A program made the translations under genes and the position numbers. From Escherichia phage AnnaHegner_Bas87: DNA of 64,000 nt. The notes below the pieces were generated by a model. That model worked only from the letters and a program-made list of their open reading frames with translations. It was not told where the DNA came from and made no database searches. Where the stretch lies: sequence record PQ850594.1. One strand, 5' to 3'. Positions 29,254 through 46,791 of the stretch are shown here, piece by piece (the first letter of the stretch is position 1; the number at the start of each line of letters is the position of its first letter).

Positions 29254-29300
29254 ACAAAAAAAGCCCCCAACCTGTAAAAAGGAAGGGGGCTTCTTTATTT
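29254..29300. terminator. bidirectional rho-independent terminator at convergent junction
   Basis: AAGCCCCC...GGGGGCTT hairpin flanked by A7 upstream and CTTTATTT downstream. Confidence 0.55.
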
Positions 29301-29358
29301 CTAGATGTTAGAATCCATCGAATTCATCACACATCCCAATTTTCTTCTTCGAAGTCAA

Positions 29359-29625
29359 TCATAAGACCTCCCAATCATCTGCAAATAAATCACCCTGAGA
29401 TGGAACCCATCCGGGTTGCATAATACCCTGAGCATTCTTTAAGTCTAAATGAGGGGCGATAGTGAATCGACCTGTGATGCCAGCTTTTTCATAATCAGAA
29501 CCCGGTCGAGCTTCTTCTACTTCATATCCACCTGCTTTGATGACGAACTGATTTGCACCATTCCAACCAGAACGAGCAATCTTCTTACCTTCTTTTACTT
29601 TAATAAGTGCTGAACTAAAATCCAT
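29359..29625 (-). CDS. DUF2829-like protein (Tad2-like anti-defense candidate)
   Basis: 88 aa; ...EGKKIARSGWNG... and C-terminal ...WVPSQGDLFADDWEVL match my recollection of DUF2829. Confidence 0.5.
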   Translation of the reverse strand: MDFSSALIKVKEGKKIARSGWNGANQFVIKAGGYEVEEARPGSDYEKAGITGRFTIAPHLDLKNAQGIMQPGWVPSQGDLFADDWEVL

Positions 29626-29633
29626 TTGTTCTC

Positions 29634-29936
29634 CTAGATTAAATCATAATACTTAATAATATCGGAGAGCTTAAACTCTCGAATGTCATTCTTGTCGTTG
29701 TCCCAAGCGGTCATTATCCAACAAGGTTTGCCCCCATTATGATAGCGGGAAGAAGCAACTGAGGTTCGTAAAGGAATAACGGAGCGGTCTGCAACTTCAC
29801 CTCTCCAATTACGATAGCTAAAGCGAAGAACTTGTTTCGTAGATACTTGATCATGTGTGTTTTCCTTGTTCATAGATTCAAAGACTTCTCTTTCTTCAGG
29901 AGTCTCTAGATTTTTTAAATTCACGTCTTGCATCAT
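29634..29936 (-). CDS. hypothetical protein
   Basis: 100-aa ORF. Confidence 0.4.
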   Translation of the reverse strand: MMQDVNLKNLETPEEREVFESMNKENTHDQVSTKQVLRFSYRNWRGEVADRSVIPLRTSVASSRYHNGGKPCWIMTAWDNDKNDIREFKLSDIIKYYDLI

Positions 29937-32573: not shown

Positions 32574-32798
32574 TTAAACTACACAGAACAAATATATTGC
32601 TGTGTCAGGACAAGGGATGTGATCACTAGGTTGCCTAATTCTATCCCATTCATCATCTTCTGCTATATAATAAGCCCAATAAGACTCACCATCGTTGATG
32701 AAGAATTTGAATGTTCGTCCCCAAATCTGATTATTATGTTCCCATACTGCATGAAATTGAGTAACACCTTCTGGTATTGTAAGTTCCGCTCTGATCAT
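32574..32798 (-). CDS. hypothetical protein
   Basis: 74-aa ORF. Confidence 0.3.
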   Translation of the reverse strand: MIRAELTIPEGVTQFHAVWEHNNQIWGRTFKFFINDGESYWAYYIAEDDEWDRIRQPSDHIPCPDTAIYLFCVV

Positions 32799-33094
32799 TG
32801 TATTCCTCTCTCCTTGAGAGCTTTAAGTAAACCATTATGGTTAGCAGCACAGGTTGTATAATTATCCTGATACCACTCAAGTGTTGTTGCAAATGCCACT
32901 CCCTGTGCACTCTGAAGTAAAGGGAGGTCTACATCACATTCAGCTTTTAGGTTTGTTGGTAAGGGCATTAGCTGCCTGCTGTTGTCGCTCATTGAACAAG
33001 CCATCAAACTAGAAGCGAGCAAAATCACCAAACAACTCTTTTGCTTTTTCTTTGTAAGCATTTTCTGCACCTTCTTGAGTGCTATGATAACCAA
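32795..33094 (-). CDS. lipoprotein, outer-membrane spanin (Rz1-like) candidate
   Basis: signal peptide with lipobox LMAC; likely start at internal Met (33061); overlaps 3' end of HNH gene. Confidence 0.4.
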   Translation of the reverse strand: MVIIALKKVQKMLTKKKQKSCLVILLASSLMACSMSDNSRQLMPLPTNLKAECDVDLPLLQSAQGVAFATTLEWYQDNYTTCAANHNGLLKALKERGIQ

Positions 33095-33533
33095 GCCAAA
33101 TTACTTTGTTTTGATATCCGATACGAGCACTCCATTTATTAATATCTGACCTGTATCCTACACCTTTTATTCCAGTTAAAGAGTTCTTTTGAACTATTTT
33201 ATTGGCATTGTTGAGGACAGGTGTTGCTTTTCTTAGATTGCTCCAAGAGTTATTAGACTTATCTAAATCTTTATGGTCTATTTGGAAATCGGGAATTTCT
33301 CCAGTTTTTATATACCAAGCAACTCGGTGAGCTTTGTATGTCTTTCTCTGAAAATTCAATGTTACATAACCAGCTTTTGTTTTACACCCTGCAACCTTTC
33401 CTGCGAGTCTTGAGTTCCACTGAGCGCTCTTATCTTTAGAATGTTTCCAGTACAGAAGACCGGAAGCCTCGTCATAAGACAGATATTTAATTAATTCTTT
33501 AATTTCAGTGCCTCCGCTGCTTGTTGTTGTCGT
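33009..33533 (-). CDS. HNH-AP2 homing endonuclease; N-terminal region lacks a canonical start codon
   Basis: open frame reads ...LSYDEASGLLYWKHS...AGYVT-NFQRKTYKAHRVAWYIKTGEIP...IDHKDLDKSNNSWSNLR... then AP2-like domain; only in-frame ATG/GTG/TTG is TTG at 33359. Confidence 0.55.
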   Translation of the reverse strand, partial: TTTTSSGGTEIKELIKYLSYDEASGLLYWKHSKDKSAQWNSRLAGKVAGCKTKAGYVTLNFQRKTYKAHRVAWYIKTGEIPDFQIDHKDLDKSNNSWSNLRKATPVLNNANKIVQKNSLTGIKGVGYRSDINKWSARIGYQNKVIWLGYHSTQEGAENAYKEKAKELFGDFARF

Positions 33534-33856
33534 TCATTGAAAAGTCCTACATACTCATCGCTAGCACACACATTGTAAAAAACTGGCTTAGTCTTTTCAT
33601 AATGCATCTCTTTGTAAATAGTTTCCGTGTTCTTCTTCCAGTTTGATAAACCAGTTAGAACTTTCTGAGCCACTTCATCAGCAGCCCTAGCCCTCTCAAT
33701 CTCTATCTCGTGCTGCTTCTTCTCTTGGTCAAGAGTGTTGCTATCATTTCGATATTGCTCAAACTTCATTCCACCAAAGAAAATAAGAGCTGTGAAAATA
33801 AGAAAGCCTATATTGTTTTGAAGCTTTTCCATTTTAACTCCAACGAAAAAAGCCAC
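33491..33856 (-). CDS. inner-membrane spanin (Rz-like) candidate
   Basis: N-terminal TM helix then charged coiled coil; 121 aa. Confidence 0.4.
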   Translation of the reverse strand: MAFFVGVKMEKLQNNIGFLIFTALIFFGGMKFEQYRNDSNTLDQEKKQHEIEIERARAADEVAQKVLTGLSNWKKNTETIYKEMHYEKTKPVFYNVCASDEYVGLFNERQQQAAEALKLKN

Positions 33857-33868
33857 CCAAAGGTGGCT
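33843..33868 (-). terminator. rho-independent terminator (minus strand)
   Basis: AGCCACC-CAAA-GGTGGCT hairpin followed on minus strand by TTTTT. Confidence 0.45.
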
Positions 33869-33890
33869 AAGCTATTACAAGGAGAGATTC

Positions 33891-34631
33891 TTAGAATGGA
33901 GAGTCATCCTCTTCAAAGGTTGATTGCGGCTCTTCATTAATGGTAGGGATGCTTGGAGTAGCATCTTTCTGTTCAGTGTCAGAAGCTTTAGTAACTTCAC
34001 GACCAGCCAGAGGGATATTCTTAGCATCGTTAGCTTGAGTCAAGAGGCTACGTTGGAATGGGAAGATTGCTTGATAAGCAGCTAAGTTAGCGTCAGTCTC
34101 AGCATACGGTTCGAAGAAGATCAACTCACTACGAGGAGCACCTACCGCGTCACGATATTTAGTCGGGATTGGAGTGATGCTTTTAATGGAGTTTTTCTTC
34201 TCACCAGCTTTGTTTACATAGGAATTAACCAGAATGTTAACAGGCTGACCTAACAGCATATCTTTAAACCAACCCAAATCACCTTTCAGTGCTTGAACAC
34301 TTGGGTCGATCATTTTAATCAGATTTAGAATACCAGAGTTCTTAGCTCGTGGATTTACATCGAAAGATTTAAACTGGCAAGCAGGACGAGGGTCCAGAGG
34401 TTTGCCTTCATTATCAGTCCCTGTTGCATCTACGCCAATCAGCTCAAAAGCTAAGTCCATACGGAAAGCTGGATTCTTAGGAGTAACTGCTTTGGTTTTA
34501 GGGTCAATCCAAGGGTCACGATTGTGAACACCCAAACCTACAACACGAACAATACGTGCTTCGTACTCACCATCAGGGATTACATCGTAGTTGGATTTAC
34601 GGGATACAGACAGTTCAGGGATCATAGACAT
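33891..34631 (-). CDS. ssDNA-binding protein candidate (acidic C-terminal tail ending in Phe)
   Basis: 246 aa; C-terminus ...STFEEDDSPF resembles SSB/gp2.5-type tails; otherwise unverified. Confidence 0.4.
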   Translation of the reverse strand: MSMIPELSVSRKSNYDVIPDGEYEARIVRVVGLGVHNRDPWIDPKTKAVTPKNPAFRMDLAFELIGVDATGTDNEGKPLDPRPACQFKSFDVNPRAKNSGILNLIKMIDPSVQALKGDLGWFKDMLLGQPVNILVNSYVNKAGEKKNSIKSITPIPTKYRDAVGAPRSELIFFEPYAETDANLAAYQAIFPFQRSLLTQANDAKNIPLAGREVTKASDTEQKDATPSIPTINEEPQSTFEEDDSPF

Positions 34632-34690
34632 ATTAATATTTCCTTATATAGATTTAAGATTGTTGCTCTCTTTGAGCGGTTTGTATACTA

Positions 34691-34699
34691 TATACATTA
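34691..34699 (-). promoter_or_regulatory. phage promoter-like motif TAATGTATA (minus strand)
   Basis: ~60 nt upstream of start 34631. Confidence 0.4.
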
Positions 34700-34761
34700 C
34701 ACTTATACAGATAAGGTTCTATTATACTATAACCTTTTTGGTAGTAGATAATGACAAGTAG

Positions 34762-34770
34762 TAATGTATA
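34762..34770 (+). promoter_or_regulatory. orphan plus-strand copy of TAATGTATA motif in ORF-free region
   Basis: no plus-strand ORF downstream; faces antisense to phosphatase gene. Confidence 0.3.
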
Positions 34771-34964
34771 TATGGTATAGCTAGTAAAGCTATTGCAGGC
34801 TTGTATATTGGGCAATCATTGTAACCCTTGCAAGTACCGAAGGGCAGGAGACACCTGCGAGATAAAAATAGAGAATTAAGGAAATCCTTGATTTAGGTTG
34901 AGGACTCCTAGGACTTTGATTCTCTATTAAAATCAAAAGAAAACTTAACTTAAAACAATAACTT

Positions 34965-35603
34965 CTACCATTCTAAAAGACCTTTAAAACTAGTTTGTTC
35001 TACTGTTCTCTGATAAGGTAAGTTAGATTCTGCTTGTTTGCTTAACATCTCTTGTACTTTATCAGTAATTGGATAATCTTTTTGTAATAAAGAAGCTATC
35101 CACTCTTTCCTACTTTCCAGTTCTTTTCTAATCTCTTGCAGAGACACAGCTTTGTAATCAATTTGTTCCATAGAGGTACAAAAATATCTCCAATCTTTGA
35201 TAGTAGAGTTATGAGTATGAGCATAGATATTATACTTTCCTCTCATTTCATCAGAGTGAATAGGAATATGAGTTACCCAAAATTCTTTGTATTTATAATC
35301 ACCACTGATGTGTCTAAAGACTTTCATCATATCAGGGAGAAGTTCTAATCTGTCATGATTTCCTAAGACAAGATGTTTCTCTCCCTTTACTTCAGCGATA
35401 ATATCAAGTGCATATTTCTCAAACACCCAATCACCTGTAAAGAAAGTTTTATCACGTTTAGTAACATGGTCGAACGCTGCTAAGATAGCTTTGTCATGTT
35501 CTTCAATACTACTAAACTTCTTTCTAAAATTACAGATGTTACGATGGCCTAGGTGACCATCACCTGCAAAATAAACTTCAGCCATTCTCGTATGTGTCCT
35601 CAT
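34965..35603 (-). CDS. metallophosphoesterase (Ser/Thr phosphatase-like)
   Basis: GDGHLGH and LVLGNHD motifs of calcineurin-like phosphoesterases. Confidence 0.65.
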   Translation of the reverse strand: MRTHTRMAEVYFAGDGHLGHRNICNFRKKFSSIEEHDKAILAAFDHVTKRDKTFFTGDWVFEKYALDIIAEVKGEKHLVLGNHDRLELLPDMMKVFRHISGDYKYKEFWVTHIPIHSDEMRGKYNIYAHTHNSTIKDWRYFCTSMEQIDYKAVSLQEIRKELESRKEWIASLLQKDYPITDKVQEMLSKQAESNLPYQRTVEQTSFKGLLEW

Positions 35604-35763
35604 AATATGAGTAGTTGAAGGATTCAGCTTTCGTTTCAGCCTCCTCCATATCGTCTGTTTCCAGAATCACTTTCCAGCCAGAACCTTCAGGATACTCAGC
35701 CCCTTCGTCTAGCCAGACTTTATACCGTTTAGATAGTGCAACCATCGCAGATATAATCTCCAC
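35578..35763 (-). CDS. small acidic protein (paralog of 36313-36492)
   Basis: shared pattern Y.VW..E..E....GW..IL.TDD.EEAE...N..YYE. Confidence 0.45.
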   Translation of the reverse strand: MEIISAMVALSKRYKVWLDEGAEYPEGSGWKVILETDDMEEAETKAESFNYSYYEDTYENG

Positions 35764-35932
35764 TCAAGGATTCTTGTAAGAGACGAGATTGCTCATCGGC
35801 ATACAAAGCATCAATTTCTTCCTTGAGCTTTGCAAGCTCTACAAAGTTGATAAGTTGCCCATAATCTGTCGCATCTGTGATAAATTGAAACAAACCTGTC
35901 GCATCATTTTTAATAATATATTCATTAGACAT
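35729..35932 (-). CDS. hypothetical small protein
   Basis: 67-aa ORF. Confidence 0.35.
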   Translation of the reverse strand: MSNEYIIKNDATGLFQFITDATDYGQLINFVELAKLKEEIDALYADEQSRLLQESLSGDYICDGCTI

Positions 35933-36156
35933 TATAGCAACTCCCTTTGTTTACTGTTGATAACAGTCATCGCTGTTACTGGGTTGTTTGTTCCAAGATA
36001 TTCTAGAACAGAGACACCCTTAGTCGGTTTATCAGCCTCTATGTAATTCTTAACCTTGCCACCAAGAACCGCTAGAGAAGCCTGAGCTTCTGCTTCATCA
36101 GTATGAACTCGGTCAACTGTTTTCTTTCCAATCGTGTAAGTGTGAACGTAAATCAT
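35932..36156 (-). CDS. hypothetical small protein
   Basis: 74-aa ORF. Confidence 0.35.
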   Translation of the reverse strand: MIYVHTYTIGKKTVDRVHTDEAEAQASLAVLGGKVKNYIEADKPTKGVSVLEYLGTNNPVTAMTVINSKQRELL

Positions 36157-36359
36157 TTAACTTCCTCAATATTGACTAATTCAAAACTTCCTATTTCTTC
36201 AAGTTTGATAATCTCTTTAACCTTCTCAACAGCTTTAATAGGGTTTTCTTCTTCTACAACTTTACACCCTGACACTTCAAGACTTCCTGTTCCACGAAGG
36301 TATAAATTTAACTTATAAACTACTTTGTAGTATTTCATCGTGCTCCCAATTTCTTTCAT
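36153..36359 (-). CDS. hypothetical small protein
   Basis: 68-aa ORF. Confidence 0.35.
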   Translation of the reverse strand: MKEIGSTMKYYKVVYKLNLYLRGTGSLEVSGCKVVEEENPIKAVEKVKEIIKLEEIGSFELVNIEEVK

Positions 36360-36492
36360 AATATCCAGAGTTGTAGTTTAGGGCGCATTTCTCGGCCTCT
36401 TCTATGTCGTCTGTGTTTAGGATATTAACCCAACCACCAACTTCATCAAAACCCTCTTCTTCTTCATTAAACCATACGCTGTATTTCTTCAT
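36313..36492 (-). CDS. small acidic protein (paralog of 35578-35763)
   Basis: likely ATG start at 36492 (MKKYSVWFNEEEE...). Confidence 0.45.
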   Translation of the reverse strand: MKKYSVWFNEEEEGFDEVGGWVNILNTDDIEEAEKCALNYNSGYYERNWEHDEILQSSL

Positions 36493-36664
36493 CTTGATAA
36501 GACTCTCCCCCAATCCTTGATGTAACAGCGACCGTCAACCCACTTGGTCTCTGATTTAAACTCTTTTGAGATTCGAGTCTCGCAATCTTCTTTACTGTAA
36601 TCTCCAAGAGCATCCATCGCCCAAAGAAACAGAGCAATTACAATAGACCAGATTAGAAACTTCT

Positions 36665-37057
36665 TCATCGTATCACCAGAGGCTCTTCAGAGTATACAGG
36701 AGAGGCTATTTCTACCGGAGGTGCTGCTCTAAGGTCATTAAGCCTTACGCCCTTCAGCATACCATCTAGGTGGTCCATTTTAGGGATACCTACAGGGAAG
36801 TCATCAATCCAAACATCCACAAAGAAACCCAAGCTCTGAGTGACGGAATCCTTCTGAACACCGTTGCAAAAGATAACAGGAATATCTAGACTTGCTGCAT
36901 CTGCTAGAAGCTCCTCATTTGAATACCCATTGGGTTGAGCAAAACGATAGGTGACAATACGTACGTCATGTCCACGAGATTTCATAAGACCTACAATGTG
37001 GGTCCACATCTCTTTGTCCACTGTAAAAGTATCATCATAATCTAAACCAATATTCAT
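36665..37057 (-). CDS. HAD-superfamily phosphatase (nucleotidase candidate)
   Basis: N-terminal MNIGLDYDDTFT = HAD motif I DxDxT. Confidence 0.5.
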   Translation of the reverse strand: MNIGLDYDDTFTVDKEMWTHIVGLMKSRGHDVRIVTYRFAQPNGYSNEELLADAASLDIPVIFCNGVQKDSVTQSLGFFVDVWIDDFPVGIPKMDHLDGMLKGVRLNDLRAAPPVEIASPVYSEEPLVIR

Positions 37058-37095
37058 ATTAGCCTCTTAGACAAGAAAAGCCACCCGAAGGTAGC

Positions 37096-37338
37096 TTATT
37101 TATTCTGTGTTTCCAGTTCGCTGATACGAACTTTCAAACCATTGATTTCAGCCTGAGCGGCTTCTAGCTTAATTAGAGCTTCTTCAGCGTCAGCTTCTGT
37201 TTGAAGAACCGCAGTAGTTAGTTCATACAAAGCCTGACGTAGTGAATCTTTGCCCATAGAATGAATCTGTGCAACAAAGAATTGCTTACCTTCAGTTGTT
37301 TCTAGAGTCTCTTTCAATTCTTTAGATGTTAAAGTCAT
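37096..37338 (-). CDS. hypothetical coiled-coil protein
   Basis: 80-aa ORF. Confidence 0.4.
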   Translation of the reverse strand: MTLTSKELKETLETTEGKQFFVAQIHSMGKDSLRQALYELTTAVLQTEADAEEALIKLEAAQAEINGLKVRISELETQNK

Positions 37339-37340
37339 TA

Positions 37341-37508
37341 TTACTCCCTTTCATAAATTTTGAGAACTGTACCACCATCTGCTTTAATCTGAGCAGCGAC
37401 TTCATCGCGTTCTTCATCAGAATAAACCAGTTGGTTGTGAAATTTTCCTGTAGCATCTTGGAAATATACATTCCATTTTGGAGCAGGTTTACGAATCAAA
37501 TCCATCAT
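37341..37508 (-). CDS. unlisted small ORF (55 aa)
   Basis: ATG start, TAA stop overlapping next start (TAATG); MMDLIRKPAPKWNVYFQDATGKF... Confidence 0.35.
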   Translation of the reverse strand: MMDLIRKPAPKWNVYFQDATGKFHNQLVYSDEERDEVAAQIKADGGTVLKIYERE

Positions 37509-37639
37509 TGATCTTTCTCCTCTCGTTCAACCCATGTACGGAAAAGCTCCCCATACACTTTGGCATCATCAAAACGTCCTTCTTCCTGTGCGAGTTTTTG
37601 TTGCTTCAAGCACCATTCAGAACTTTTTACTTCTTCCAC
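37505..37639 (-). CDS. unlisted small ORF (44 aa, GTG start)
   Basis: AAGGAGACAAGGAA RBS; stop overlaps next ATG (ATGATG). Confidence 0.3.
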   Translation of the reverse strand: MEEVKSSEWCLKQQKLAQEEGRFDDAKVYGELFRTWVEREEKDQ

Positions 37640-37696
37640 TTCCTTGTCTCCTTAAAAAGAACTAATCAATAAGACTAGTTCATTTCGTAATACGAT

Positions 37697-37888
37697 TCAG
37701 CTCTTCCACGGGAGGTTGATGGTTAAATTCTTAATGGAGAAATCTTTATCAGGAAACTCTTCCATTAACTCAGCCGCTTCTTGAATAGCTTTTCTTTCTG
37801 TGTTATAGATGCAGAAATGTCCATTACAGCAAACAATTGCATCTTTTGCTCCCGTAATGGCCCATGTTTCATGTACATGTCTAGTCAT
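37697..37888 (-). CDS. hypothetical small protein
   Basis: 63-aa ORF abutting DNA polymerase gene. Confidence 0.35.
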   Translation of the reverse strand: MTRHVHETWAITGAKDAIVCCNGHFCIYNTERKAIQEAAELMEEFPDKDFSIKNLTINLPWKS

Positions 37889-37905
37889 TATTCCTCCACT
37901 ACAAA

Positions 37906-39753
37906 TTAGTGAGTGTGATTCCAGTTTAACCCAATCTTACAGTCAGATGCCAGAGGGCATTCCATTTTGAGATACTCACCTGCTTTACGAACACACTCTT
38001 CAGTGAGGGTACGAAGTTTGTTAACATCGTCACGATGTACAGTGAACTGGCCTTCATCATGCATGTCAATAACCTTCGCACAACGAACACCATCACGCTC
38101 AATCCATTTATTAAGGAATAGCATTGCATACTTCATAACAATCGCCCCAGCGCTCTGTAAGAGAGTATTTAAGGCTTTATGAACCATAACCTTTCCAGTT
38201 GCATCTCTTCTCATTGTAATACGACGTCCATCCACACCGTAGATGTATCCACTTTGTGCTTTCTCTGTCATACGTTCAATAAGAATTGCAATACAAGGAT
38301 TCTCTGCTAAGAATCTTGCCCTCATGACAGCTCCTTCATCAGAGCCACCGCCTACGATGCTTCCTAACTTAGCGTCACCAGCTCCGTAGTTGAATGCGTA
38401 GATAAATGTTTTAGCATTATCACGAGTAGGAAGGCCAGCAAGTTTTTGGTTATGTGAGTGAATATCTCCTTCTAAAAGAATATCTCTGTACATAACAGCA
38501 GAAGCTAGACCGCGTTCAGCTTCTCGTTTCTTAGCCGGGTTGTTTTCTCGCTCTGCTTCAGCGAGCATCTCACGACACTCTTTAATAAGGTAGTGAGCTA
38601 GCATCCTCAGCTCAAGACCAGAGCCATCGTAACCTAAGAAGATTTCACGACCAGCAGGAACATAGAACTTATAGGCACCTACAGGTTTGTCTTTCTTGCC
38701 CGGTTTTCCCACTTCGTAGATAGTGTTAGTACCCTTTCGTACGTAACACCCATCAGGGATATGGTTGGTAATGGTGAAAGGATGGTTATGACTATCGTCT
38801 GAGGAATAGTCAGATTGAAAAAGACTGCGGCACTCGTGACCAAACAAACCGCGAGAAGGAATATTAACAACAATGCGATGTTTAAAACGAAATGTCGGAG
38901 TAGCGCAGCTATTAGCTTCGGCGGACAACTTACCATCTTTACGTTCCTTGTCGATAAGCCCGCTAATCAAACCTAGCCTGTGAGCCGCTACAACGCGTCT
39001 CTTAAGCAAACTTCCTACACCCCCTAGCTCACCCCCAAGCCCTTCTTCAAGAGTCTCCTCAAGGTTTGTAGGGGCTGTAGGCCACTTGTTTGATGTAGCC
39101 AAAGCTTTTTTGATTTCATCAAAGGTTACAGGCTTCTTCCTATTAGGGTTAAGACCTAAACCGCTGACATAGGCTTTCATATAATTGACAGTGTGATAAC
39201 GGAAGTGCTTATCCAAAAACCTTCGGATATCAGCATCTATCATCTCTGCTGTCTGTTTCTCTTTAGCGTTACCTCGAATCCAAGCAGAATACCATGCAGA
39301 GTATGTACCATACTTCTTCATAGCTTTACGAATTTCAAAAGTATTCCAAGGTTTCTTAGAATAATTCCACTCTGGAGGTATAAAACCTTCATCCATCAAG
39401 GCTTCTTTAATACGTGCATCTTTTGATGGGTCAAAATCTACATACTCAACGCAAGTAAACGCCCCACCGATATCTTCTCTTTTAAGACCAACCCTATCGC
39501 AATAGAGCTGAGGCCACTTCTGTAAAGCACCTGACTTCTTAAAAGGCTTAGCATAAGTTGAACCATCCACCCGCATTTTAGGGAGGAGAGGAATCAGTTC
39601 TTTATCAATATTGACAATAATCTCTTTGAGAAGGTGAACAAACCACCGAGCGTTTCTTCTGTTGAAGTTGACTCCATGCTTCGCTTGTTTTGAGATTATA
39701 TCAGCGACTGTCATCTCCGTTATGAAAGGTAACTTATCAGGGTTATCCATCAC
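37906..39753 (-). CDS. DNA polymerase, family A (polymerase domain)
   Basis: motif A YDGSGLELRMLAH, motif B RDNAKTFIYAFNYGAG, motif C MHDEGQF. Confidence 0.8.
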   Translation of the reverse strand: MMDNPDKLPFITEMTVADIISKQAKHGVNFNRRNARWFVHLLKEIIVNIDKELIPLLPKMRVDGSTYAKPFKKSGALQKWPQLYCDRVGLKREDIGGAFTCVEYVDFDPSKDARIKEALMDEGFIPPEWNYSKKPWNTFEIRKAMKKYGTYSAWYSAWIRGNAKEKQTAEMIDADIRRFLDKHFRYHTVNYMKAYVSGLGLNPNRKKPVTFDEIKKALATSNKWPTAPTNLEETLEEGLGGELGGVGSLLKRRVVAAHRLGLISGLIDKERKDGKLSAEANSCATPTFRFKHRIVVNIPSRGLFGHECRSLFQSDYSSDDSHNHPFTITNHIPDGCYVRKGTNTIYEVGKPGKKDKPVGAYKFYVPAGREIFLGYDGSGLELRMLAHYLIKECREMLAEAERENNPAKKREAERGLASAVMYRDILLEGDIHSHNQKLAGLPTRDNAKTFIYAFNYGAGDAKLGSIVGGGSDEGAVMRARFLAENPCIAILIERMTEKAQSGYIYGVDGRRITMRRDATGKVMVHKALNTLLQSAGAIVMKYAMLFLNKWIERDGVRCAKVIDMHDEGQFTVHRDDVNKLRTLTEECVRKAGEYLKMECPLASDCKIGLNWNHTH

Positions 39754-39766
39754 CCACTCCTTATAG

Positions 39767-40120
39767 TTATTGGTATATTAAATCTGTGAATGCTTGGTTG
39801 TCTTCAACAATATCTAAAGCTTCATATGAATCAGCCAATTCATCCACATAAAAGACTGCTGGAATATCTTCTGCTCGTTGTCTACGAGCTTCTCTCCGTT
39901 CGTTGCTGTTTCTCTGAACCTGTGCAAGTTTCATACCCCACACCTGCTCATATAACTCTGGATACTTGTCACTAACCACTACATAGTTTCGAGCTGGTTG
40001 GTTTCTATTAATCTTCGCTGTCAACTCAATAAACTGGCGAAACTCTTGAATAGAGAGGTTGTCATGAATATTATCCCACTTGAGAACGCAGTGACGTTCT
40101 AGGCGTTGAGGTACTGGCAT
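39767..40120 (-). CDS. hypothetical protein
   Basis: 117-aa ORF. Confidence 0.4.
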   Translation of the reverse strand: MPVPQRLERHCVLKWDNIHDNLSIQEFRQFIELTAKINRNQPARNYVVVSDKYPELYEQVWGMKLAQVQRNSNERREARRQRAEDIPAVFYVDELADSYEALDIVEDNQAFTDLIYQ

Positions 40121-40123
40121 AAC

Positions 40124-40393
40124 TTACTCCACTGTAGGGAATGGTTTTAGGTTGTTCATGGCTGTACGAACATCAGCACAGACTTCAGGGTCACGATAAG
40201 AGAGGAATTTACCATCCTTACCACGAATCATTACATTAGTCCGTGCTGTTTTATTAGGCAATAAAGAAATCCCTCCAATCAGGTGATTGGTAGGGTGTTG
40301 TCCTTGATTAACCTTGTAGTCATGAGTCTGAGCGTCACCATTAAAGAGATGATCACGAATTTGGATTAAGCTGATCTTCATATTATGCACCAA
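40124..40393 (-). CDS. hypothetical protein (tandem paralog A)
   Basis: shares TARTNV.(I/L)RG.DGKF(L/I)S(Y/F)RD...NLKPFP with next ORF. Confidence 0.45.
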   Translation of the reverse strand: MVHNMKISLIQIRDHLFNGDAQTHDYKVNQGQHPTNHLIGGISLLPNKTARTNVMIRGKDGKFLSYRDPEVCADVRTAMNNLKPFPTVE

Positions 40394-40634
40394 AGTTAGG
40401 GAAAGGTTTCAGATTTTCAATAGACTTAGCAATACGCTTAGGAACAATCTTATCACGGAAGGAGATGAACTTGCCATCAGGGCCACGAAGGGCTACATTA
40501 GTACGAGCTGTTGTTTTGTTAAACTGAATCATCTCAACAGAGCTTGTAACATTTTCTACAGGAAAAGTATAACTCTCAGTTGTGTTCAGAGAAGGAAGGA
40601 AATCAGTTACAGTGATATAAGTTACTTTAGACAT
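40383..40634 (-). CDS. hypothetical protein (tandem paralog B)
   Basis: see paralog A. Confidence 0.45.
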   Translation of the reverse strand: MSKVTYITVTDFLPSLNTTESYTFPVENVTSSVEMIQFNKTTARTNVALRGPDGKFISFRDKIVPKRIAKSIENLKPFPNFGA

Positions 40635-40653
40635 ATTTATTACCTTAGGTTAC

Positions 40654-40687
40654 ATAAAAGAAAAGGCCACCCGAAATGGGTAGCCTT
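40654..40687 (-). terminator. rho-independent terminator (minus strand)
   Basis: AGGCCACCC-GAAAT-GGGTAGCCT hairpin (one G-U pair) followed on minus strand by TTTTCTTTTAT. Confidence 0.45.
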
Positions 40688-40690
40688 ATA

Positions 40691-41008
40691 TTAACTTGAG
40701 CTTAAAGCTCCTTTTCGACCGCCTGCTGATTTTCCAGCACGATCTCCACTTTTGCCGCCGTTCGAGCGATTTCGAGAGACTGATTCAACACGTAAGTTAC
40801 TTGACGCATTAGAACCTCCCGACTTGATTGATCGTTTGTGTCCAACATCTTTACCTCGGACAGCAGCTTTTCCATCGCGCTTTTCAACGATGCGACGTGC
40901 ACGGTGGCGCTGAGCATCTCCGCTCTTGCTACCAACGCCGGTCTCACCCCTTGCGATTGCAGTTCTTCGTTCTTGTGCATAATCACGTTTCGCCTTATCG
41001 GTCATCAC
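40691..41008 (-). CDS. basic Gly/Lys/Arg-rich low-complexity protein (frame uncertain)
   Basis: ATG directly downstream of promoter motif; overlapping alternative frame 40702-40986 also open. Confidence 0.3.
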   Translation of the reverse strand: MMTDKAKRDYAQERRTAIARGETGVGSKSGDAQRHRARRIVEKRDGKAAVRGKDVGHKRSIKSGGSNASSNLRVESVSRNRSNGGKSGDRAGKSAGGRKGALSSS

Positions 41009-41030
41009 AACTCCTTAACATATCAGTGTA

Positions 41031-41039
41031 CACTAAGGA
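41031..41039 (-). promoter_or_regulatory. phage promoter-like motif TAATGTATA (minus strand)
   Basis: exact 9-mer ~22 nt upstream of ATG 41008. Confidence 0.4.
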
Positions 41040-41052
41040 GTATACATTATGT

Positions 41053-41790
41053 TTATGATTTTTCAGATTCCATTGCTTTAACAATAGCTTTACAGAAACC
41101 TGAACGAACAATATCGTCTGATTCACCATCTACTAGAGCGGCAAATTCAAATAACTGGTGACGGTAGATGAAATCAGTAGCCCAATCCAGACCACTCTCA
41201 CCACGCATATCATGCTGATTAGTATCTCCCATGCAGAACATCTGAGAGGTTTCACCAAGACGTGTCATGATTGAATATGCTTCATCAGGAGTAGTATTCT
41301 GGAACTCATCAACAATCACGATGGCGTCATTGAATGATCGACCACGCAGATATTCCAGAGGTACGAACTCAATGTTACCATTACCTACTTGACATTCGTA
41401 GAAACCTTTACCGTAGCGCTGAGTAATAACATCAACGATTGGCATCAGGTATGGTTCAAACTTCTCACGAAGCCCACCGGGAAGTAGTCCAAGACTGTTA
41501 CCCATACCAACAGCAGGTCGGCTTAGGATAATCTTCTCAATCTTCCCACTCTTCAGAGCATCGATCACTGTAGAAGTGATTACGAATGTCTTACCACAGC
41601 CAGCAGGAGCATCTGTGAATACAACCTGTTTGGTTTTAATTGCATCAAGCAGCTCACTCTGGAATTGGTTCTGAGGTACTACCGGCTTAGCAAGAACTAC
41701 TTCTTCAAATTCCCGCTTTCCTTTCTTGGTGACGAGAGCTTCACGACGTAATTCTCTCCGTGATGCTTTCCGAGATTCTCTACGACTCAT
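41053..41790 (-). CDS. phoH: PhoH-like ATPase
   Basis: Walker A ...DAPAGCGKTF...; 245 aa. Confidence 0.75.
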   Translation of the reverse strand: MSRRESRKASRRELRREALVTKKGKREFEEVVLAKPVVPQNQFQSELLDAIKTKQVVFTDAPAGCGKTFVITSTVIDALKSGKIEKIILSRPAVGMGNSLGLLPGGLREKFEPYLMPIVDVITQRYGKGFYECQVGNGNIEFVPLEYLRGRSFNDAIVIVDEFQNTTPDEAYSIMTRLGETSQMFCMGDTNQHDMRGESGLDWATDFIYRHQLFEFAALVDGESDDIVRSGFCKAIVKAMESEKS

Positions 41791-41968
41791 TTCCTACCTC
41801 CGTGTTCTTCATATAAGAAGCTACAGGATTTACACTCTGAGCAATGGATACCTATAACCTTAATTTCGACAAACTTCTTATTCTTCCCTTTAGTCGGGGA
41901 GCCTTTGGCAAGCTCCCGTATTACTTTCGAGTCCAAATGGAGAAGAGTTGATTCACATTTAAAACATT

Positions 41969-42289
41969 TCAGATTGATTTGTCCTTATGTAAACGGTATA
42001 CTTCAGTAGCCATACAAGCTATACGCTCGTCATGAGGAAGATGCATACCAGTGGAGCCATTCCATCCATTGAACTCTGAATCGAAGAATCCAATAGGCTC
42101 AGGATACATCTCTTGCAAGGTGGTTAAGTCATCAGCCACTTGTTGCCACTTATCGTCAGACCAGATTGGGTCATCCAACCAATAATACAAATAGGAGTGG
42201 ATAAGCATCTGTGTTCTGTGTCGTTTAATCACTTCAGCAGGACTGATTTCATTTCCGTTACCAGTCCTAAATGTATTATTGTTGATCAT
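41969..42289 (-). CDS. hypothetical protein (motif resembling NAD-ligase domain Ia)
   Basis: ...LIHSYLYYWLDDPIWSDDKWQQVADDLTTLQEMYPE... ; weak. Confidence 0.35.
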   Translation of the reverse strand: MINNNTFRTGNGNEISPAEVIKRHRTQMLIHSYLYYWLDDPIWSDDKWQQVADDLTTLQEMYPEPIGFFDSEFNGWNGSTGMHLPHDERIACMATEVYRLHKDKSI

Positions 42290-42765
42290 TCCAAAACCCT
42301 TTCTTCTAAATCATAAAAGATTTGATTTGTCCCATTATTCTCAACAAGCACTGTTCCATTATCTAACAGGGTAGCAACTTGGGAATAAGGAATGTTCTTT
42401 AACATCAGAGAGTTGGTGGTTGGCTTCTTTTTGAAGTAAGCGACAGGCTCAACGTAGAAGGAAATCCCACGACTCCCTTTGATTGGAGTACTCGAAGACA
42501 ATACCCAAATTGTTTCTGGATTGCCTACTCCTTTTTCAACACCGACCTCAACAAGAGAGTCAGCAGCGAAACCTACAGGACGCCTAGAAGAACCAAGCAA
42601 CCGAATATATCCCGGTAGTTTTGACATATTAGACCAACTGCCAGTGTTTTCATTAAACATAGGTCGTGTATTTCCATATGCCCAAACCTGATTATCACAA
42701 TCGCGGGCTATGTATTTGGTCCACTCAGGAACATCATATTCTCTTCCTTCAAAAATAGCTTTCAT
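42286..42765 (-). CDS. hypothetical protein
   Basis: 159-aa ORF. Confidence 0.4.
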   Translation of the reverse strand: MKAIFEGREYDVPEWTKYIARDCDNQVWAYGNTRPMFNENTGSWSNMSKLPGYIRLLGSSRRPVGFAADSLVEVGVEKGVGNPETIWVLSSSTPIKGSRGISFYVEPVAYFKKKPTTNSLMLKNIPYSQVATLLDNGTVLVENNGTNQIFYDLEERVLE

Positions 42766-43074
42766 TTAGATAACCTTGTGCTTGTAGGTGTTAGGTTTGT
42801 AGTAATGCAACCAGTTTATGTGTTGCTTCTGTTCAAGGTAGTGCCTGCAATCATGACAAAAAGCATGACCCAAACCTGTTTCCTCGTTCAGCTTGAAATT
42901 GATAAGAAGCTTCTTCTTTTGACAGAAGCTACATACTTTAGTGGGCTTCACGTAGTGCGTCCCATGAGATTGGGAAAAGTTTACGAAGCTCTTCATCAAC
43001 AGTTGATGCGAATAAACGCACTTCGTATTGAGCATGGTCTGACAGACGTTGACGACACAACTCTGACCAACCAA
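42766..43074 (-). CDS. Cys-rich zinc-ribbon-like protein
   Basis: CSFCQ...CHDCRH motifs; 5' end overlaps ThyX gene in another frame, start uncertain. Confidence 0.3.
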   Translation of the reverse strand: MVGQSCVVNVCQTMLNTKCVYSHQLLMKSFVNFSQSHGTHYVKPTKVCSFCQKKKLLINFKLNEETGLGHAFCHDCRHYLEQKQHINWLHYYKPNTYKHKVI

Positions 43075-43588
43075 ATAAAGACCCTGTCCACACCCACTCA
43101 GTGATCATGCCCTGAGGCAATACGAATCGAGCTTGCTCTGGAGCGATAAACTTAATCAATTCATCATACGACTCAAGAGCTGTTTCGTATGCCCGATTAA
43201 TCAGAACTAGTGCAGAGTTTTGTGCTCCTGTGGTGAGGAGATTCCCCGCACCTGCATGGAGGTCCGAAGGTCTTTCAAAAATCTCTTTAGGGATGAAGAG
43301 TTCAACTGCTCCATCTTTATACCGCCGGGACATTTCGTTCCATGAGAATCCAACTTGGTGTTTATTGAGTTGTCTAGCAATTGCAATGGGAGCCTTACAC
43401 CGAAAGGTGATTTGAGGGTGTCGAAAAGGAGTCACATGACGTTCCCGAGCTAAGAATTTAATCAACCGCTCGTCACGTTCGTTCAGATCACCATCTCGTG
43501 TCACACCAAAGGAAACCCTTGCTGCATTGACCACAGATTTGTCGGAACCCATGTGCTCTACCAGTGTTGCTTTTAAAAAATCAGACAT
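42938..43588 (-). CDS. thyX: flavin-dependent thymidylate synthase (ThyX)
   Basis: ...TPFRHPQITFR...ARQL.KH....SWNEMSRRY ThyX-like signature. Confidence 0.65.
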   Translation of the reverse strand: MSDFLKATLVEHMGSDKSVVNAARVSFGVTRDGDLNERDERLIKFLARERHVTPFRHPQITFRCKAPIAIARQLNKHQVGFSWNEMSRRYKDGAVELFIPKEIFERPSDLHAGAGNLLTTGAQNSALVLINRAYETALESYDELIKFIAPEQARFVLPQGMITEWVWTGSLFGWSELCRQRLSDHAQYEVRLFASTVDEELRKLFPISWDALREAH

Positions 43589-44048
43589 ACTTCAACTTCT
43601 CCTTGTTGTAAACTTCTTCTGCCTCTTCGCAAGAAGCAAAAGTCCCTAAATGTATATTCTTACCTTTGACGCCAATGATGGCTCGGTATCTATCACCAGA
43701 AGTTGTCTTACGAAGATACACACCCCTAGGAAGATTTCCTATCTTGCTATCAACATCATACTGCTTTCTGTTATGGCAGTTAGTGGATGGATTTACATCT
43801 CTTAGGTTATCAATCGAATCATTAAGTTTGTTCTGGTCGATGTGGTCAATTTCAAACTCAGGAAACTTTCCATGAACAAAGAACCAAGCAAGGCGACAAG
43901 CTCTGTAGCTTTTCCCTTCATACTCAATATAACGATAACCTAGAGAAGATACATATCCAGCTTGATTCCCTTTAACCCTTCGACCTTTTGTGTTCTTCCA
44001 GAAGAAGGCTCCAGTCTTAGGGTTATATTCCAAGTCATCTTGTATCAT
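43581..44048 (-). CDS. HNH-AP2 homing endonuclease
   Basis: N-terminal ...YNPKTGAFFWK...AGYV..LGYRYIEYEGKSYRACRLAWFFVHG...IDHID... plus AP2-like ...DRYRAIIGVKGKNIHLGTFASCEEAE... Confidence 0.65.
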   Translation of the reverse strand: MIQDDLEYNPKTGAFFWKNTKGRRVKGNQAGYVSSLGYRYIEYEGKSYRACRLAWFFVHGKFPEFEIDHIDQNKLNDSIDNLRDVNPSTNCHNRKQYDVDSKIGNLPRGVYLRKTTSGDRYRAIIGVKGKNIHLGTFASCEEAEEVYNKEKLKYV

Positions 44049-44055
44049 CTCTTCC

Positions 44056-44268
44056 TTAATAATAAACTTTTGGTACTACTACAATGAAACCCGCTGCTGT
44101 CATATATGCACGGTGGATTGAAATCTTCGAATCACGACCCATCTTCTTGAGGGCACGTTTAGTGCATCGTGCAGTTTTACGAGTAGCACACGTGTTAACC
44201 CTTGGATACTCCATCTCTGGATATTCAGAAACAACAGCCCAAAAATACACATCTTTTCCTTGAGTCAT
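44056..44268 (-). CDS. small protein, paralog family member 1 of 4 (C-terminal K-V/I-Y/H-Y)
   Basis: 70 aa; shared TR.EAR..K.. and C-terminal PKVYY. Confidence 0.45.
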   Translation of the reverse strand: MTQGKDVYFWAVVSEYPEMEYPRVNTCATRKTARCTKRALKKMGRDSKISIHRAYMTAAGFIVVVPKVYY

Positions 44269-44283
44269 AATAGCACCTATTCT

Positions 44284-44499
44284 TTAATAGTAAATCTTTT
44301 TATAAATCAGGTTGCTTCCACTTTCTGTTTCAATCCCTTTCTGGATTGTAATCTTAGAAGCACCGGTATTAGCAATTTTTAAAGCTCGTTTAAAGCGGCG
44401 AGCCTCTCTCCGTGTTGTGTATGAGGAGAAGCTAGGGATTGTACTATCAAAATTAAACCACTTAACTACCCAAAAAGTAATCCAAGGTTTCTTTTCCAT
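44284..44499 (-). CDS. small protein, paralog family member 2 of 4
   Basis: 71 aa; TRREARRFKRALK ... KKIYY. Confidence 0.45.
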   Translation of the reverse strand: MEKKPWITFWVVKWFNFDSTIPSFSSYTTRREARRFKRALKIANTGASKITIQKGIETESGSNLIYKKIYY

Positions 44500-44500
44500 A

Positions 44501-44776
44501 TTAAATACCTTTCAGAGCTGTATCTAAAAACGCACGGAGGTTTGATTCAGTTTGCATACCGGACAAGCTGTAGTGAGCACCACTGTTCATGTTAGGAACC
44601 ACAAAGGCTGGGATACTGCGAACACCATATTCAATGGCTCGCTCTCGACCATCACCTTCAGAGATATTTACTTCTTCAACTTCTACGTTGTAATCAGCTA
44701 CAACTTTCTTAAACACAGGAGCCATAGCTGCACATGGAGCACAGGAATTACTATAAAACTTAATTACTTTACTCAT
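44501..44776 (-). CDS. thioredoxin-fold (thioredoxin/glutaredoxin-like) protein
   Basis: CAPC active-site-like motif after beta strand (KFYSNSCAPCAAM); likely start MSKVIKF with AAGGAA RBS. Confidence 0.55.
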   Translation of the reverse strand: MSKVIKFYSNSCAPCAAMAPVFKKVVADYNVEVEEVNISEGDGRERAIEYGVRSIPAFVVPNMNSGAHYSLSGMQTESNLRAFLDTALKGI

Positions 44777-44777
44777 T

Positions 44778-44954
44778 TTATTCCTTGTTAATAAACAGAT
44801 TGATATGACGCTGGGTAGCAGGAACAACAATAAAAGATTTATACTGACCTTTTGCTAAGTCATGAGCAATCTTCTTTGTCTGACCAAGACCCATCACACA
44901 GCCACTAACGATAATGGCATGTGCTTGTAATTCTTCAGGTAGGTTTAGTTTCAC
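44778..44954 (-). CDS. unlisted small ORF (58 aa, GTG start)
   Basis: AAGGAA RBS; stop overlaps thioredoxin ATG (TAAAATG). Confidence 0.3.
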   Translation of the reverse strand: MKLNLPEELQAHAIIVSGCVMGLGQTKKIAHDLAKGQYKSFIVVPATQRHINLFINKE

Positions 44955-44966
44955 TCTTTGGATTCC

Positions 44967-45152
44967 TTATAGCATACAAAGAATAATAACAAGAGGTAGT
45001 GTTATAGCAAAATGTACCAGAACAACACTACCTAGCTTGATAGCTTTAACATCCTCTTCTGCTGGGTTTTCTTTAATTGCTAAATTTCGAGCTTTATATA
45101 TAACAGTACCAACTATTAACGACCACACGGCCCACACAATCAGTGAAATCAT
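44967..45152 (-). CDS. small membrane protein (2 TM), tandem paralog
   Basis: shared K.NP...K.IK.GS.ALV.F pattern with next ORF. Confidence 0.45.
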   Translation of the reverse strand: MISLIVWAVWSLIVGTVIYKARNLAIKENPAEEDVKAIKLGSVVLVHFAITLPLVIILCML

Positions 45153-45161
45153 ATCAAACCC

Positions 45162-45383
45162 TTATGCAGTCAACAGGTGGAGAAGGAAAGGAATGACAAC
45201 AGAGAAAACTACCAGAGCAATGCTACCATGTTTAATAGGTTTGGCATCATTTGGATTTTCTTTAAGCATCTGCTTCTGAGCCAGATAAACGATACCACCA
45301 ACAAGGATTGCCCATACAGACCATACGATTGCTGAAAACATACTCATATCCTTATAAAGAAGTTCGCCCCACCTCTTGAACAA
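45162..45383 (-). CDS. small membrane protein (2 TM), tandem paralog
   Basis: see above. Confidence 0.45.
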   Translation of the reverse strand: MFKRWGELLYKDMSMFSAIVWSVWAILVGGIVYLAQKQMLKENPNDAKPIKHGSIALVVFSVVIPFLLHLLTA

Positions 45384-45404
45384 AGAGACAGGGCGGAGGT
45401 TTGA

Positions 45405-45980
45405 TTAGTAAGACACATCACCACTGGAGTGGGACATGTTGCTCTTGACGAAGTAACAGAACTTGCCAAGACCTTCATTAATTTCTTGAAGCATACTCTG
45501 GTCCACTGGATAGGTGCACAAGTCTGAATCAAACTCATCCATCTTCTCAATGATACACATAAGAGTCATGCACATGTCGGAAAGCATACCGTCCATGTCG
45601 AGATCAGCGTTACCTTCTCGGAACCAAGCATGGCCTAAATAATTACTAGCAGTAGCATCCACTTTAACACAATGAAAGCGCATACGCTCTGCTATTCGGT
45701 CGCCTGCCTCACGAGCATAATCTTCTAGTTCATCGAACATACCATGAACACCTTGGAAACCAGCTCCAGAGACGTTCCAGTGGTAGTTCTTTGCTTTGAT
45801 GTGTAGAAGTTCAAGGTTAGCTTGCACACCACACAAGATGTGTTCTAAGCTGTTACCGCTAATCAGTTTATTCATTCCCTCAAGACGAGAGATAGAAGAG
45901 TCAGTAGTAGAGAATGGGTTGCTAGAACCCACTCGTGTTAGTTCTGGTAAGTCGAAGACATTATTATGCATTAGGTGCAT
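45405..45980 (-). CDS. Dps/ferritin-like protein
   Basis: ...KAKNYHWNVSGAGFQGVHGMFDELEDYAREAGDRIAERM... matches Dps ferroxidase region. Confidence 0.6.
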   Translation of the reverse strand: MHLMHNNVFDLPELTRVGSSNPFSTTDSSISRLEGMNKLISGNSLEHILCGVQANLELLHIKAKNYHWNVSGAGFQGVHGMFDELEDYAREAGDRIAERMRFHCVKVDATASNYLGHAWFREGNADLDMDGMLSDMCMTLMCIIEKMDEFDSDLCTYPVDQSMLQEINEGLGKFCYFVKSNMSHSSGDVSY

Positions 45981-46311
45981 CCCCTTCTAAGTTAGTTGAA
46001 TTAGCTACATTACGAGCAATGTTATCCATGACCTGCTGGGTAATAACAATGCAATTCTGTGGGTCTACAGACTTAGAACGCCCCATTTCAGGGTCATAAA
46101 CCTTAACACGCTTGGCTGTTGAGCCAGTAACTTGCAACACTTTGAGAAGATAACCTTGGTTTCCAATAGACCATGCAACAACATCACGATTCTTGATATA
46201 ACGACCAAGCATATCACGATGATAGAACTGCTGCATAACTTTAGCTTTGCTAATCTCTTCAGATGGCGGGGCCACTTTACTCAAATCTAACATAACTCTC
46301 TCCTGTTTCAT
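45964..46311 (-). CDS. hypothetical protein
   Basis: 115-aa ORF. Confidence 0.4.
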   Translation of the reverse strand: MKQERVMLDLSKVAPPSEEISKAKVMQQFYHRDMLGRYIKNRDVVAWSIGNQGYLLKVLQVTGSTAKRVKVYDPEMGRSKSVDPQNCIVITQQVMDNIARNVANSTNLEGDAPNA

Positions 46312-46330
46312 ACAATATTCTTATACTGTA

Positions 46331-46339
46331 TATACATTT
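46331..46339 (-). promoter_or_regulatory. phage promoter-like motif (AAATGTATA, minus strand)
   Basis: ~20 nt upstream of start 46311. Confidence 0.3.
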
Positions 46340-46363
46340 GAGAGTTATCATATCTACTACCAA

Positions 46364-46579
46364 CTAGTAATAAACCTTGCTGGATATGAATCCAGCACTG
46401 TTATGGATATTTTCAATCCAACGATGAATCTCCACCTTTTCAGCGATTCCTAAAGCTTTTGTAGCTTTTATAGTTTTCTTAGCAAGACGAGCCTCTTGTC
46501 TTGTGTTGAATAATTGAATACAATCACCACCAAGAGCTTTGTTAGCCCATTTAGTACGAACTGCCCATAATTTATCCAT
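46364..46579 (-). CDS. small protein, paralog family member 3 of 4
   Basis: 71 aa; TRQEARLAKK ... SKVYY. Confidence 0.45.
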   Translation of the reverse strand: MDKLWAVRTKWANKALGGDCIQLFNTRQEARLAKKTIKATKALGIAEKVEIHRWIENIHNSAGFISSKVYY

Positions 46580-46791
46580 TAGTAATGTACCTTTCCGCTG
46601 ATATAGAAACGACCTGATTTAAAGTCTTGAGCTTTGTGGATAGTGATCTTATTAATTGTGCTTTCACAACTTAACAAGAACTTCTTATGAGCGCGAGCTT
46701 CTTGACGGGTATTCCTAATACCCATTGACTCTGTACCACTGCTCCAGTGAATACGAACTACCCAACGTCTTTTCATTGTTCCAAACTCCAT
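46579..46791 (-). CDS. small protein, paralog family member 4 of 4
   Basis: 70 aa; TRQEARAHKK ... GKVHY. Confidence 0.45.
   Translation of the reverse strand: MEFGTMKRRWVVRIHWSSGTESMGIRNTRQEARAHKKFLLSCESTINKITIHKAQDFKSGRFYISGKVHY

Follow-up and report, generated by a model that had tools for sequence, protein, structure and literature searches.

The gene investigated in this study encodes an 88-aa protein whose membership of the Tad2 family is not in doubt, and it lies on the minus strand of the window, which is the whole 64,000-nucleotide stretch of DNA from Escherichia phage AnnaHegner_Bas87 (PQ850594.1) that was analysed. The best explanation of the protein, to which we give a probability of roughly 65%, is that it would serve as a Tad2-family sponge for an ADP-ribose (ADPR)-derived TIR signal. 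In the mechanism proposed, the small protein would form a homotetramer, for which a dimer of V-shaped dimers is expected from the family, and its canonical inter-dimer pocket would sequester, without degrading it, an ADPR-derived alarm nucleotide with which a bacterial TIR defence of the Thoeris type signals, and would thereby keep the effector of that defence from being activated. Taken separately, a role as a signal sponge of some kind appears quite likely, and the residues of the pocket point to a TIR/ADPR-derived nucleotide as the reasonably probable ligand. Thoeris is carried by strains of E. coli, including type VI systems that signal with 2'cADPR, a nucleotide bound by SPO1 Tad2, HgmTad2 and MoTad2; relevant Thoeris targets thus exist in the host species. 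It is important to note that the annotated Gordonclarkvirinae records with this gene all label it 'hypothetical protein' so far, and that Gordonclarkvirinae phages, which are being considered for therapy, reportedly withstand many of the defence systems against which they were tested.

The gene, its family and its fold

The original prediction had proposed an 88-aa minus-strand ORF, and both its exact coordinates (Table 1) and its sequence were recovered in the ORF listing; the ORF starts with ATG and its product, MDFSSALIKVKEGKKIARSGWNG...WVPSQGDLFADDWEVL, is identical to the protein quoted at that time. We observed dN/dS values of 0.16-0.37 against the orthologs of Bas86, ShigP1 and Salmonella phage TR2, and the ortholog of IME_EC2 is 83% identical in protein despite saturated synonymous sites. 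On account of these values, the ORF is recognized as a real, expressed-looking gene under purifying selection and not as a chance ORF.

Table 1. Positions in the window of the Tad2-like gene and of the elements around it
Feature	Coordinates	Strand	Basis and remarks
Tad2-like (PF11195/DUF2829) CDS, 88 aa	29359..29625	-	ORF listing, Pfam, PDB sequence matches, AlphaFold2 (AF2), Foldseek, dN/dS
Ribosome-binding site (RBS) AGGAG	29631..29635	-	5 nt 5' of the Tad2-like ATG; sequence and motif position
Bidirectional intrinsic terminator	~29257..29300	both	GAAGCCCCC...GGGGGCUUU; minus-strand U-run, plus-strand T-rich tail
11-codon ORF MIDFEEENWDV	29327..29362	-	ATG overlaps the Tad2-like stop (ATGA); translation
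WYL-domain protein, 100 aa	29634..29936	-	PF13280, 27 bits against a cutoff of 21.8; phrog_3715
gp36 promoter element tAATGTAtA, exact match	34691..34699	-	Motif search; nearest one upstream on the coding strand

The RBS is situated inside AATCTAGGAG, where the upstream WYL gene also has its stop codon; according to the indel alignment, this stretch forms one edge of the presence/absence indel of the Tad2-like gene. The same stretch was considered as a genome-wide cassette repeat and rejected, as 4 matches were found against about 6 expected by chance. On the other side of the gene, the region 29250-29362 folds as RNA with -37.1 kcal/mol (z -4.57), and none of 200 shuffles folded equally well. 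This terminator is common to the Tad2-like gene and the convergent plus-strand gene for a 1481-aa structural protein, and the indel alignment shows it conserved in relatives with and without the Tad2-like gene. Since the hairpin and U-tract 3' of the ORF also end the convergent gene, the Tad2-like gene is indeed the last of the minus-strand module, as had been claimed.

The 11-codon ORF forms the other edge of the indel. Its DNA is conserved with and without Tad2, being present in 101114UKE3, which lacks Tad2, and the stretch is fused in frame to the Tad2 of ShigP1 as a C-terminal extension, whereas in SU10 it is no ORF. For this last reason it was rejected as a conserved gene or a fossil Tad2 C-terminus, and its coding status is doubtful; the ...ENWDV end of its translation loosely resembles the ...DDWEV C-terminus of the Tad2 family.

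Family membership was recognized at the level of profile, sequence and structure. The assignment to DUF2829, originally made from the family's sequence patterns, was borne out by a full-length match to Pfam PF11195 (Tad2-like, formerly DUF2829; E 2.2e-23, 83 bits against a cutoff of 25), in which residues 1-88 align to positions 1-73 of the 73-position profile; a scan of the protein and its WYL neighbour against NCBIfam gave no match. A phmmer search against the PDB sequences matched five solved Tad2 proteins with E values of 2e-9 to 3e-7, SptTad2, ModTad2, HgmTad2/AcrIIA7 and SPO1 Tad2 being among them. The single-chain AlphaFold2 model, which was built on 57 homologs, reached a pLDDT of 95.5 and a pTM of 0.81, and in the comparison with solved structures all 24 Foldseek matches in the PDB with E<=1e-3 were Tad2 structures (TM 0.64-0.79), the next match having an E value of 0.5 and the lowest rmsd, 1.8 A, being obtained against ModTad2. 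The model displays the elements H3-11, E16-18, E27-31, E34-36, H44-47, E54-56, E59-63, H77-81 and E85-87, and hence the N-terminal helix, the antiparallel beta sheet and the short C-terminal helix before the last strand that define the Tad2 fold. Along the chain, helix 3-11 is followed by a GWNG loop (20-23), beta strands, a variable insertion at about residues 32-58, the pocket motif WVPSQGD (73-79) and DW (84-85). The N- and C-terminal motifs on which the original prediction had been based are both real, and they are the most conserved parts of the family among the 57 homologs.

The binding pockets and the N64/G78 subfamily

Pocket residues were taken from Yirmiya et al. (bioRxiv 10.1101/2023.05.01.538930) and Li et al. 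(PMC10680739), and mapped onto the 88-aa protein by HMMER alignments. The residues that bind gcADPR are W25, N26, W73 and D79 in SPO1 Tad2 (bioRxiv 10.1101/2023.05.01.538930) and W21, N22, G23, W87, S90 and D93 in HgmTad2 (PMC10680739), and the core which they form is intact here, as W21, N22, G23, W73, S76 and D79 align to them. W21, N22 and G23 sit on the beta1-beta2 loop and W73, S76 and D79 on the C-terminal loop and helix; these six residues, together with W85, are invariant in the 57 homologs. The residues contacting phosphate and ribose are likewise unchanged, whereas the adenine sub-site of the SPO1/HgmTad2 type is not matched, T92, A78 and V84 of HgmTad2 being replaced by G78, N64 and Q70, respectively. 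Throughout the clade, even at an overall identity as low as 42%, the segment L62-W85 hardly changes. Conservation is lowest in the insertion, most of which is lost in P0053 and the ShigP1 ortholog. These patterns indicate that selection acts on the canonical pocket and not on the insertion.

The intact core is no guarantee of cADPR binding, because ModTad2 keeps the same core and yet does not inhibit type I Thoeris. Depending on the member, Tad2 proteins bind at least 3'cADPR, 2'cADPR, His-ADPR, N7-cADPR, cyclic dinucleotides or cUMP/cCMP (PMC12393519; PMC10680739; bioRxiv 10.64898/2025.12.03.692087), and 18 homologs were screened by Hadary et al. (PMC12393519). With ligands so diverse, and with ModTad2 as a precedent, homology places the protein in the family but does not fix the exact target signal.

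Comparatively, three groups of characterised Tad2 proteins share different features with the protein of the window. SPO1 Tad2 (gp34.65; PDB 8sme/8smf/8smg), the founding anti-Thoeris sponge, which binds 1''-3' and 1''-2' gcADPR, is of nearly the same length (89 against 88 aa) with an insertion of 24 against 27 aa, has the GWNG loop and the WVPSQxD motif in common with it, has all of W25, N26, W73 and D79 conserved and is also a standalone phage gene. The two differ in that their identity is only about 30-33%, SQTD and KTAD of SPO1 correspond to SQGD and KNAQ here, one more residue is present here in the hairpin before W73 (QPGW), the structural match is weaker (TM 0.64-0.72), and the host is Bacillus instead of E. 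coli. HgmTad2 (AcrIIA7; PDB 8kbi-8kbm) and SptTad2 (8wjd), two-pocket sponges for gcADPR and cGG/cGAMP/cUG, show the same fold (TM 0.74-0.79), conserved gcADPR-site residues and an equal hairpin length before the pocket tryptophan, but they are distinguished by their cyclic-dinucleotide (CDN) site residues, by an insertion of 35-41 aa and by the adenine contacts listed above. ModTad2/MoTad2 (PDB 8v3e, 9eib), which sequesters His-ADPR (type II Thoeris) as well as 2'cADPR and cUMP/cCMP and does not act on 3'cADPR, is 38% identical, the highest value among the three characterised Tad2 sequences aligned in full, and it is the closest structure (rmsd 1.8-3.2 A, with 1.8 A against 8v3e_B); the 8v3e chain also has 88 residues, P75 is common to both proteins, and the insertion is strand-helix-strand in each, whereas PSVSD and KTVD of ModTad2 stand where PSQGD and KNAQ are found here. 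The DUF2829 proteins of IME_EC2/sortsyn, TR2 and prophages fall into the same N64/G78 clade as the protein of the window and harbor an identical pocket motif, although they come from unrelated phage backbones.

The N64/G78 combination, which marks a large subfamily, was followed in 80 IMG/VR relatives and in 150 representatives taken from the 2,584 clusters that an exhaustive HMMER search gave at E<=1e-3. Both residues occurred together in 20 of 73 distinct IMG/VR sequences, N64 without G78 only once and G78 without N64 never, and the C-terminal motif was recognized in 136 of the representatives, about 64 of which had Gly at position 78. At positions 64 and 78, SPO1 Tad2 has T/T, ModTad2 T/S, SptTad2 S/T and HgmTad2 A/T, so that N/G is present in none of the four. 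In HgmTad2, both positions (A78 and T92) belong to the same protomer and touch the adenine, T92 through a hydrogen bond to the adenine of gcADPR (PMC10680739), and for this reason the N64/G78 pair gives the impression that the base sub-site was remodelled in a concerted way. In a set of eight cultured phages, the N/G type was observed in Klebsiella phage Miami, Pseudomonas phage Lu11 and the E. coli P1-like phage-plasmid D6; it was absent from the Bacillus, Listeria and Lactobacillus phages, and Pectobacterium phage Koot and Vibrio phage nt-1 display other types. The subfamily was seen here in phages of Gammaproteobacteria, namely the clade of the window, D6, Miami and Lu11.

Fusions of the subfamily were also examined. 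Among 46 long representatives with Gly78, six are fused to Sequestin (PF21825), one to Acb4 (PF13876) and one to an Acb2/Tad1 hairpin. Sequestin, a family of 3'cADPR sponges, Acb4, Acb2 and Tad1 are all validated signal sponges (PMC12265669), and these fusions place the Gly78 subfamily in a counter-defence niche. We also noticed a 154-aa protein (P0048), 75% identical to that of the window and fused to Sequestin (PF21825), in which SMED replaces SQGD in the pocket motif, and many representatives clustered at 50% carry N-terminal extensions of 60-200 aa without a Pfam match.

In the literature, no characterised member of the N64/G78 type was found, nor any binding, oligomer or infection study of the 88-aa protein or its clade. 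As the pair also replaces two adenine contacts, the identity of the ligand is not assignable from homology. It is conceivable, though on the unlikely side, that the subfamily constitutes a distinct specificity class of Tad2, whose remodelled base sub-site would read a TIR-derived signal that characterised Tad2 proteins bind poorly or not at all; such a signal could be canonical cADPR, 2'cADPR as used by type VI Thoeris of E. coli, or a product yet to be identified. If the pair does have a ligand preference of its own, the specificity map of Tad2 sponges would be extended, and the protein would be a possible bait for TIR signals made in Enterobacterales.

A further departure from the known ligands would be a nucleotide-like molecule outside the known immune signals, either a TIR product that has yet to be characterised or a metabolite of the host, for example ADP-ribose or an NAD derivative. 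The protein could then act in counter-defence against a system not yet recognized, in metabolism or in regulation. The strict co-variation of N64 and G78, their absence from all four structurally characterised Tad2 proteins and the continuing discovery of new TIR signals agree with this reading, but the fusions to three other validated sponge families within the same subfamily indicate the same functional niche and the phosphate and ribose contacts are unchanged, and we consider it improbable.

The sponge for a TIR signal must also be weighed against a sponge for a non-TIR signal, namely the cyclic dinucleotides of CBASS or the cUMP/cCMP of Pycsar, which would be held in an insertion-built pocket at the V-shaped dimer interface. 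Some Tad2 members do use this interface for CDNs and cyclic mononucleotides, the precedents being HgmTad2/SptTad2 (cGG, cGAMP) and ModTad2 (cUMP); CBASS has been described as generally commoner than Thoeris (PMC10680739); the insertion is modelled as strand-helix-strand (E34-36, H44-47, E54-56 in the AF2 model); and the model resembles ModTad2 and HgmTad2 more closely than SPO1 Tad2. Mutation of R31, F70, N85 or S47 of HgmTad2 abolishes the binding of cGG/cGAMP (PMC10680739), but the first three align to A31, I56 and P71 here, while S47 falls in the unalignable insertion. Moreover, the insertion (residues 32-58) has 27 aa against 35-41 aa in the CDN binders HgmTad2 and SptTad2, SPO1 Tad2 with its 24-aa insertion binds no CDN, and it is the insertion that varies or is lost in the clade while the canonical pocket is invariant. 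A non-TIR signal is thus quite improbable as the ligand, and the blocking of CBASS through the known CDN site of Tad2 is, judging from these residues, very improbable at best. The original prediction had left the choice between an anti-Thoeris and an anti-CBASS sponge; the conserved core of the ADPR-signal pocket favours a TIR/Thoeris-type signal, whereas the anti-CBASS half is unsupported because the CDN pocket of HgmTad2, both in its residues and in its long insertion, is not conserved.

Distribution and origin of the gene

A query spanning the junction detected the Tad2-like gene at this locus in 8 of 102 related records, corresponding to seven phages (EK010, E20-1, Bas86, NC-B, TH43, Bas88 and ShigP1). 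As it is missing from more than 90% of close relatives, the gene is accessory and dispensable. In 101114UKE3, as in many others, the single-gene deletion is precise to the nucleotide and extends from the Tad2-like RBS to an RBS-like sequence lying across the Tad2-like stop codon. The slot into which the gene falls, with the WYL gene on one side and the convergent terminator on the other (29300..29640), is empty in 101114UKE3 and SU7, and is occupied by a gene for a 53-aa DUF7438 protein in SU10, by an HNH_3 endonuclease in PAS59, and by Tad2 together with an HNH endonuclease in ShigP1. This slot is a hotspot of recombination and gene exchange; as a dedicated anti-defence island it was rejected, since its other occupants are DUF7438 and HNH homing endonucleases. 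The public BASEL phages offer a natural experiment, Bas86 and Bas88 harboring the gene and Bas89, Bas90 and Bas91 lacking it at this locus. The BASEL paper on Bas86 and Bas88 mentions neither Tad2 nor Thoeris, and Thoeris was not among its tests; no literature linking Tad2 to Kuravirus or BASEL phages was found.

Homologs were disclosed in unrelated backbones, with 83% identity in the Murrayvirus phages IME_EC2/sortsyn and 70% in TR2 of the Schitoviridae, and in IME_EC2, too, the gene closes an operon that converges on structural genes. Further homologs are located in prophages of Yersinia, Klebsiella, Raoultella, Pectobacterium and Xenorhabdus. A scan of species-representative genomes revealed only four close loci (Raoultella, an Enterobacteriaceae bacterium and two Xenorhabdus), and a DNA search of 5,426 complete E. 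coli genomes gave no match to the gene. In RefSeq, the homologs of Murrayvirus, TR2 and the prophages are named DUF2829 domain-containing protein, and the UniRef-source name of the IME_EC2 protein begins with 'Thoeris anti-defense 2-li...'. In the N4-like Salmonella phage TR2, two DUF2829 genes of 127 aa and 90 aa (1520-1903 and 2495-2767) were noticed about 600 bp apart in one cluster, suggesting paired sponges with different specificities. A GC anomaly was looked for in the gene of the window and none was detected, its GC content being the same as that of the neighbouring genes. Because of this, and of the synonymous saturation against IME_EC2, recent horizontal transfer was rejected and the gene is not a recent arrival.

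The irregular distribution would also suit a passenger gene, decaying or without function, at a hotspot of recombination, given the absence from most related phages and a slot that also takes homing endonucleases. Such a gene would hardly show the low dN/dS values and the protein conservation described above, nor an intact RBS and terminator with a GC content like that of its neighbours, and we regard this explanation as very improbable. E. coli is not known to carry type II-A CRISPR-Cas. The homology to AcrIIA7/HgmTad2 (PDB 8kbi, E 1.7e-8; Foldseek TM 0.78) would allow an anti-CRISPR like AcrIIA7, the DUF2829 protein first reported as a SpyCas9 inhibitor, but HgmTad2 showed no anti-Cas9 activity in vitro or in vivo (Li et al., PMC10680739), and this role is scarcely credible.

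Genome context and predicted expression

The window belongs to a phiEco32-like podophage of the Gordonclarkvirinae, to which Escherichia phage OliverMaurmann_Bas86 (95.6% over 6 kb) and the phages PAS59, SU7, NC-B and EK010 are most closely related. Upstream of the Tad2-like gene, the same strand encodes a phage sigma factor, a dNMP kinase, a 5'-3' exonuclease, a 63-aa protein, an HNH endonuclease and the WYL-domain protein. WYL domains have been described as ligand sensors in defence regulators. The WYL protein consists of little beyond this domain, and its gene, which shares 41 nt with the HNH gene upstream and stops 8 nt short of the Tad2-like start, is retained in 101114UKE3, SU10 and PAS59, all of which lack Tad2; a PDB sequence search with the protein gave no match.

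In phiEco32, the middle and late promoters consist of a single element, tAATGTAtA, that is recognised by the phage sigma factor phi32_gp36 (PMC8948821). As the nearest exact copy of this element upstream of the Tad2-like gene is the one given in Table 1, about 5 kb away, and the genes from there down to the terminator are tightly packed, the Tad2-like gene is probably of the middle class; judging from position and motif match, the unit that ends with it would start at this copy. Expression from a middle promoter would let the Tad2-like protein accumulate before the late virion proteins. Altogether the element, TAATGTATA, occurs in four exact copies, at 24763-24771 (+), 34691-34699 (-), 34762-34770 (+) and 41041-41049 (-); three of the four are directly upstream of ORFs on the same strand, and the plus-strand copy at 34762 opposes the minus-strand copy at 34691 at a distance of about 70 nt. 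A consensus scan for sigma-70 promoters and terminators displayed only weak promoters (9/12 matches) and missed the real terminator, because the loop of the latter is long.

A Pfam survey of 57 other minus-strand ORFs (32574..63659) recorded no second known sponge family in the window. The survey did disclose a standalone DNA-ligase-like NAD+-binding domain Ia (PF22745, E 1e-33), in an ORF that is not among the 10 ORFs tested one by one, as well as a T4 Y13H-like protein, a GGACT/AIG2-like protein (51530..51961) and a ProQ/FinO-like protein (62275..62703), the last of which lies just under the Pfam cutoff.
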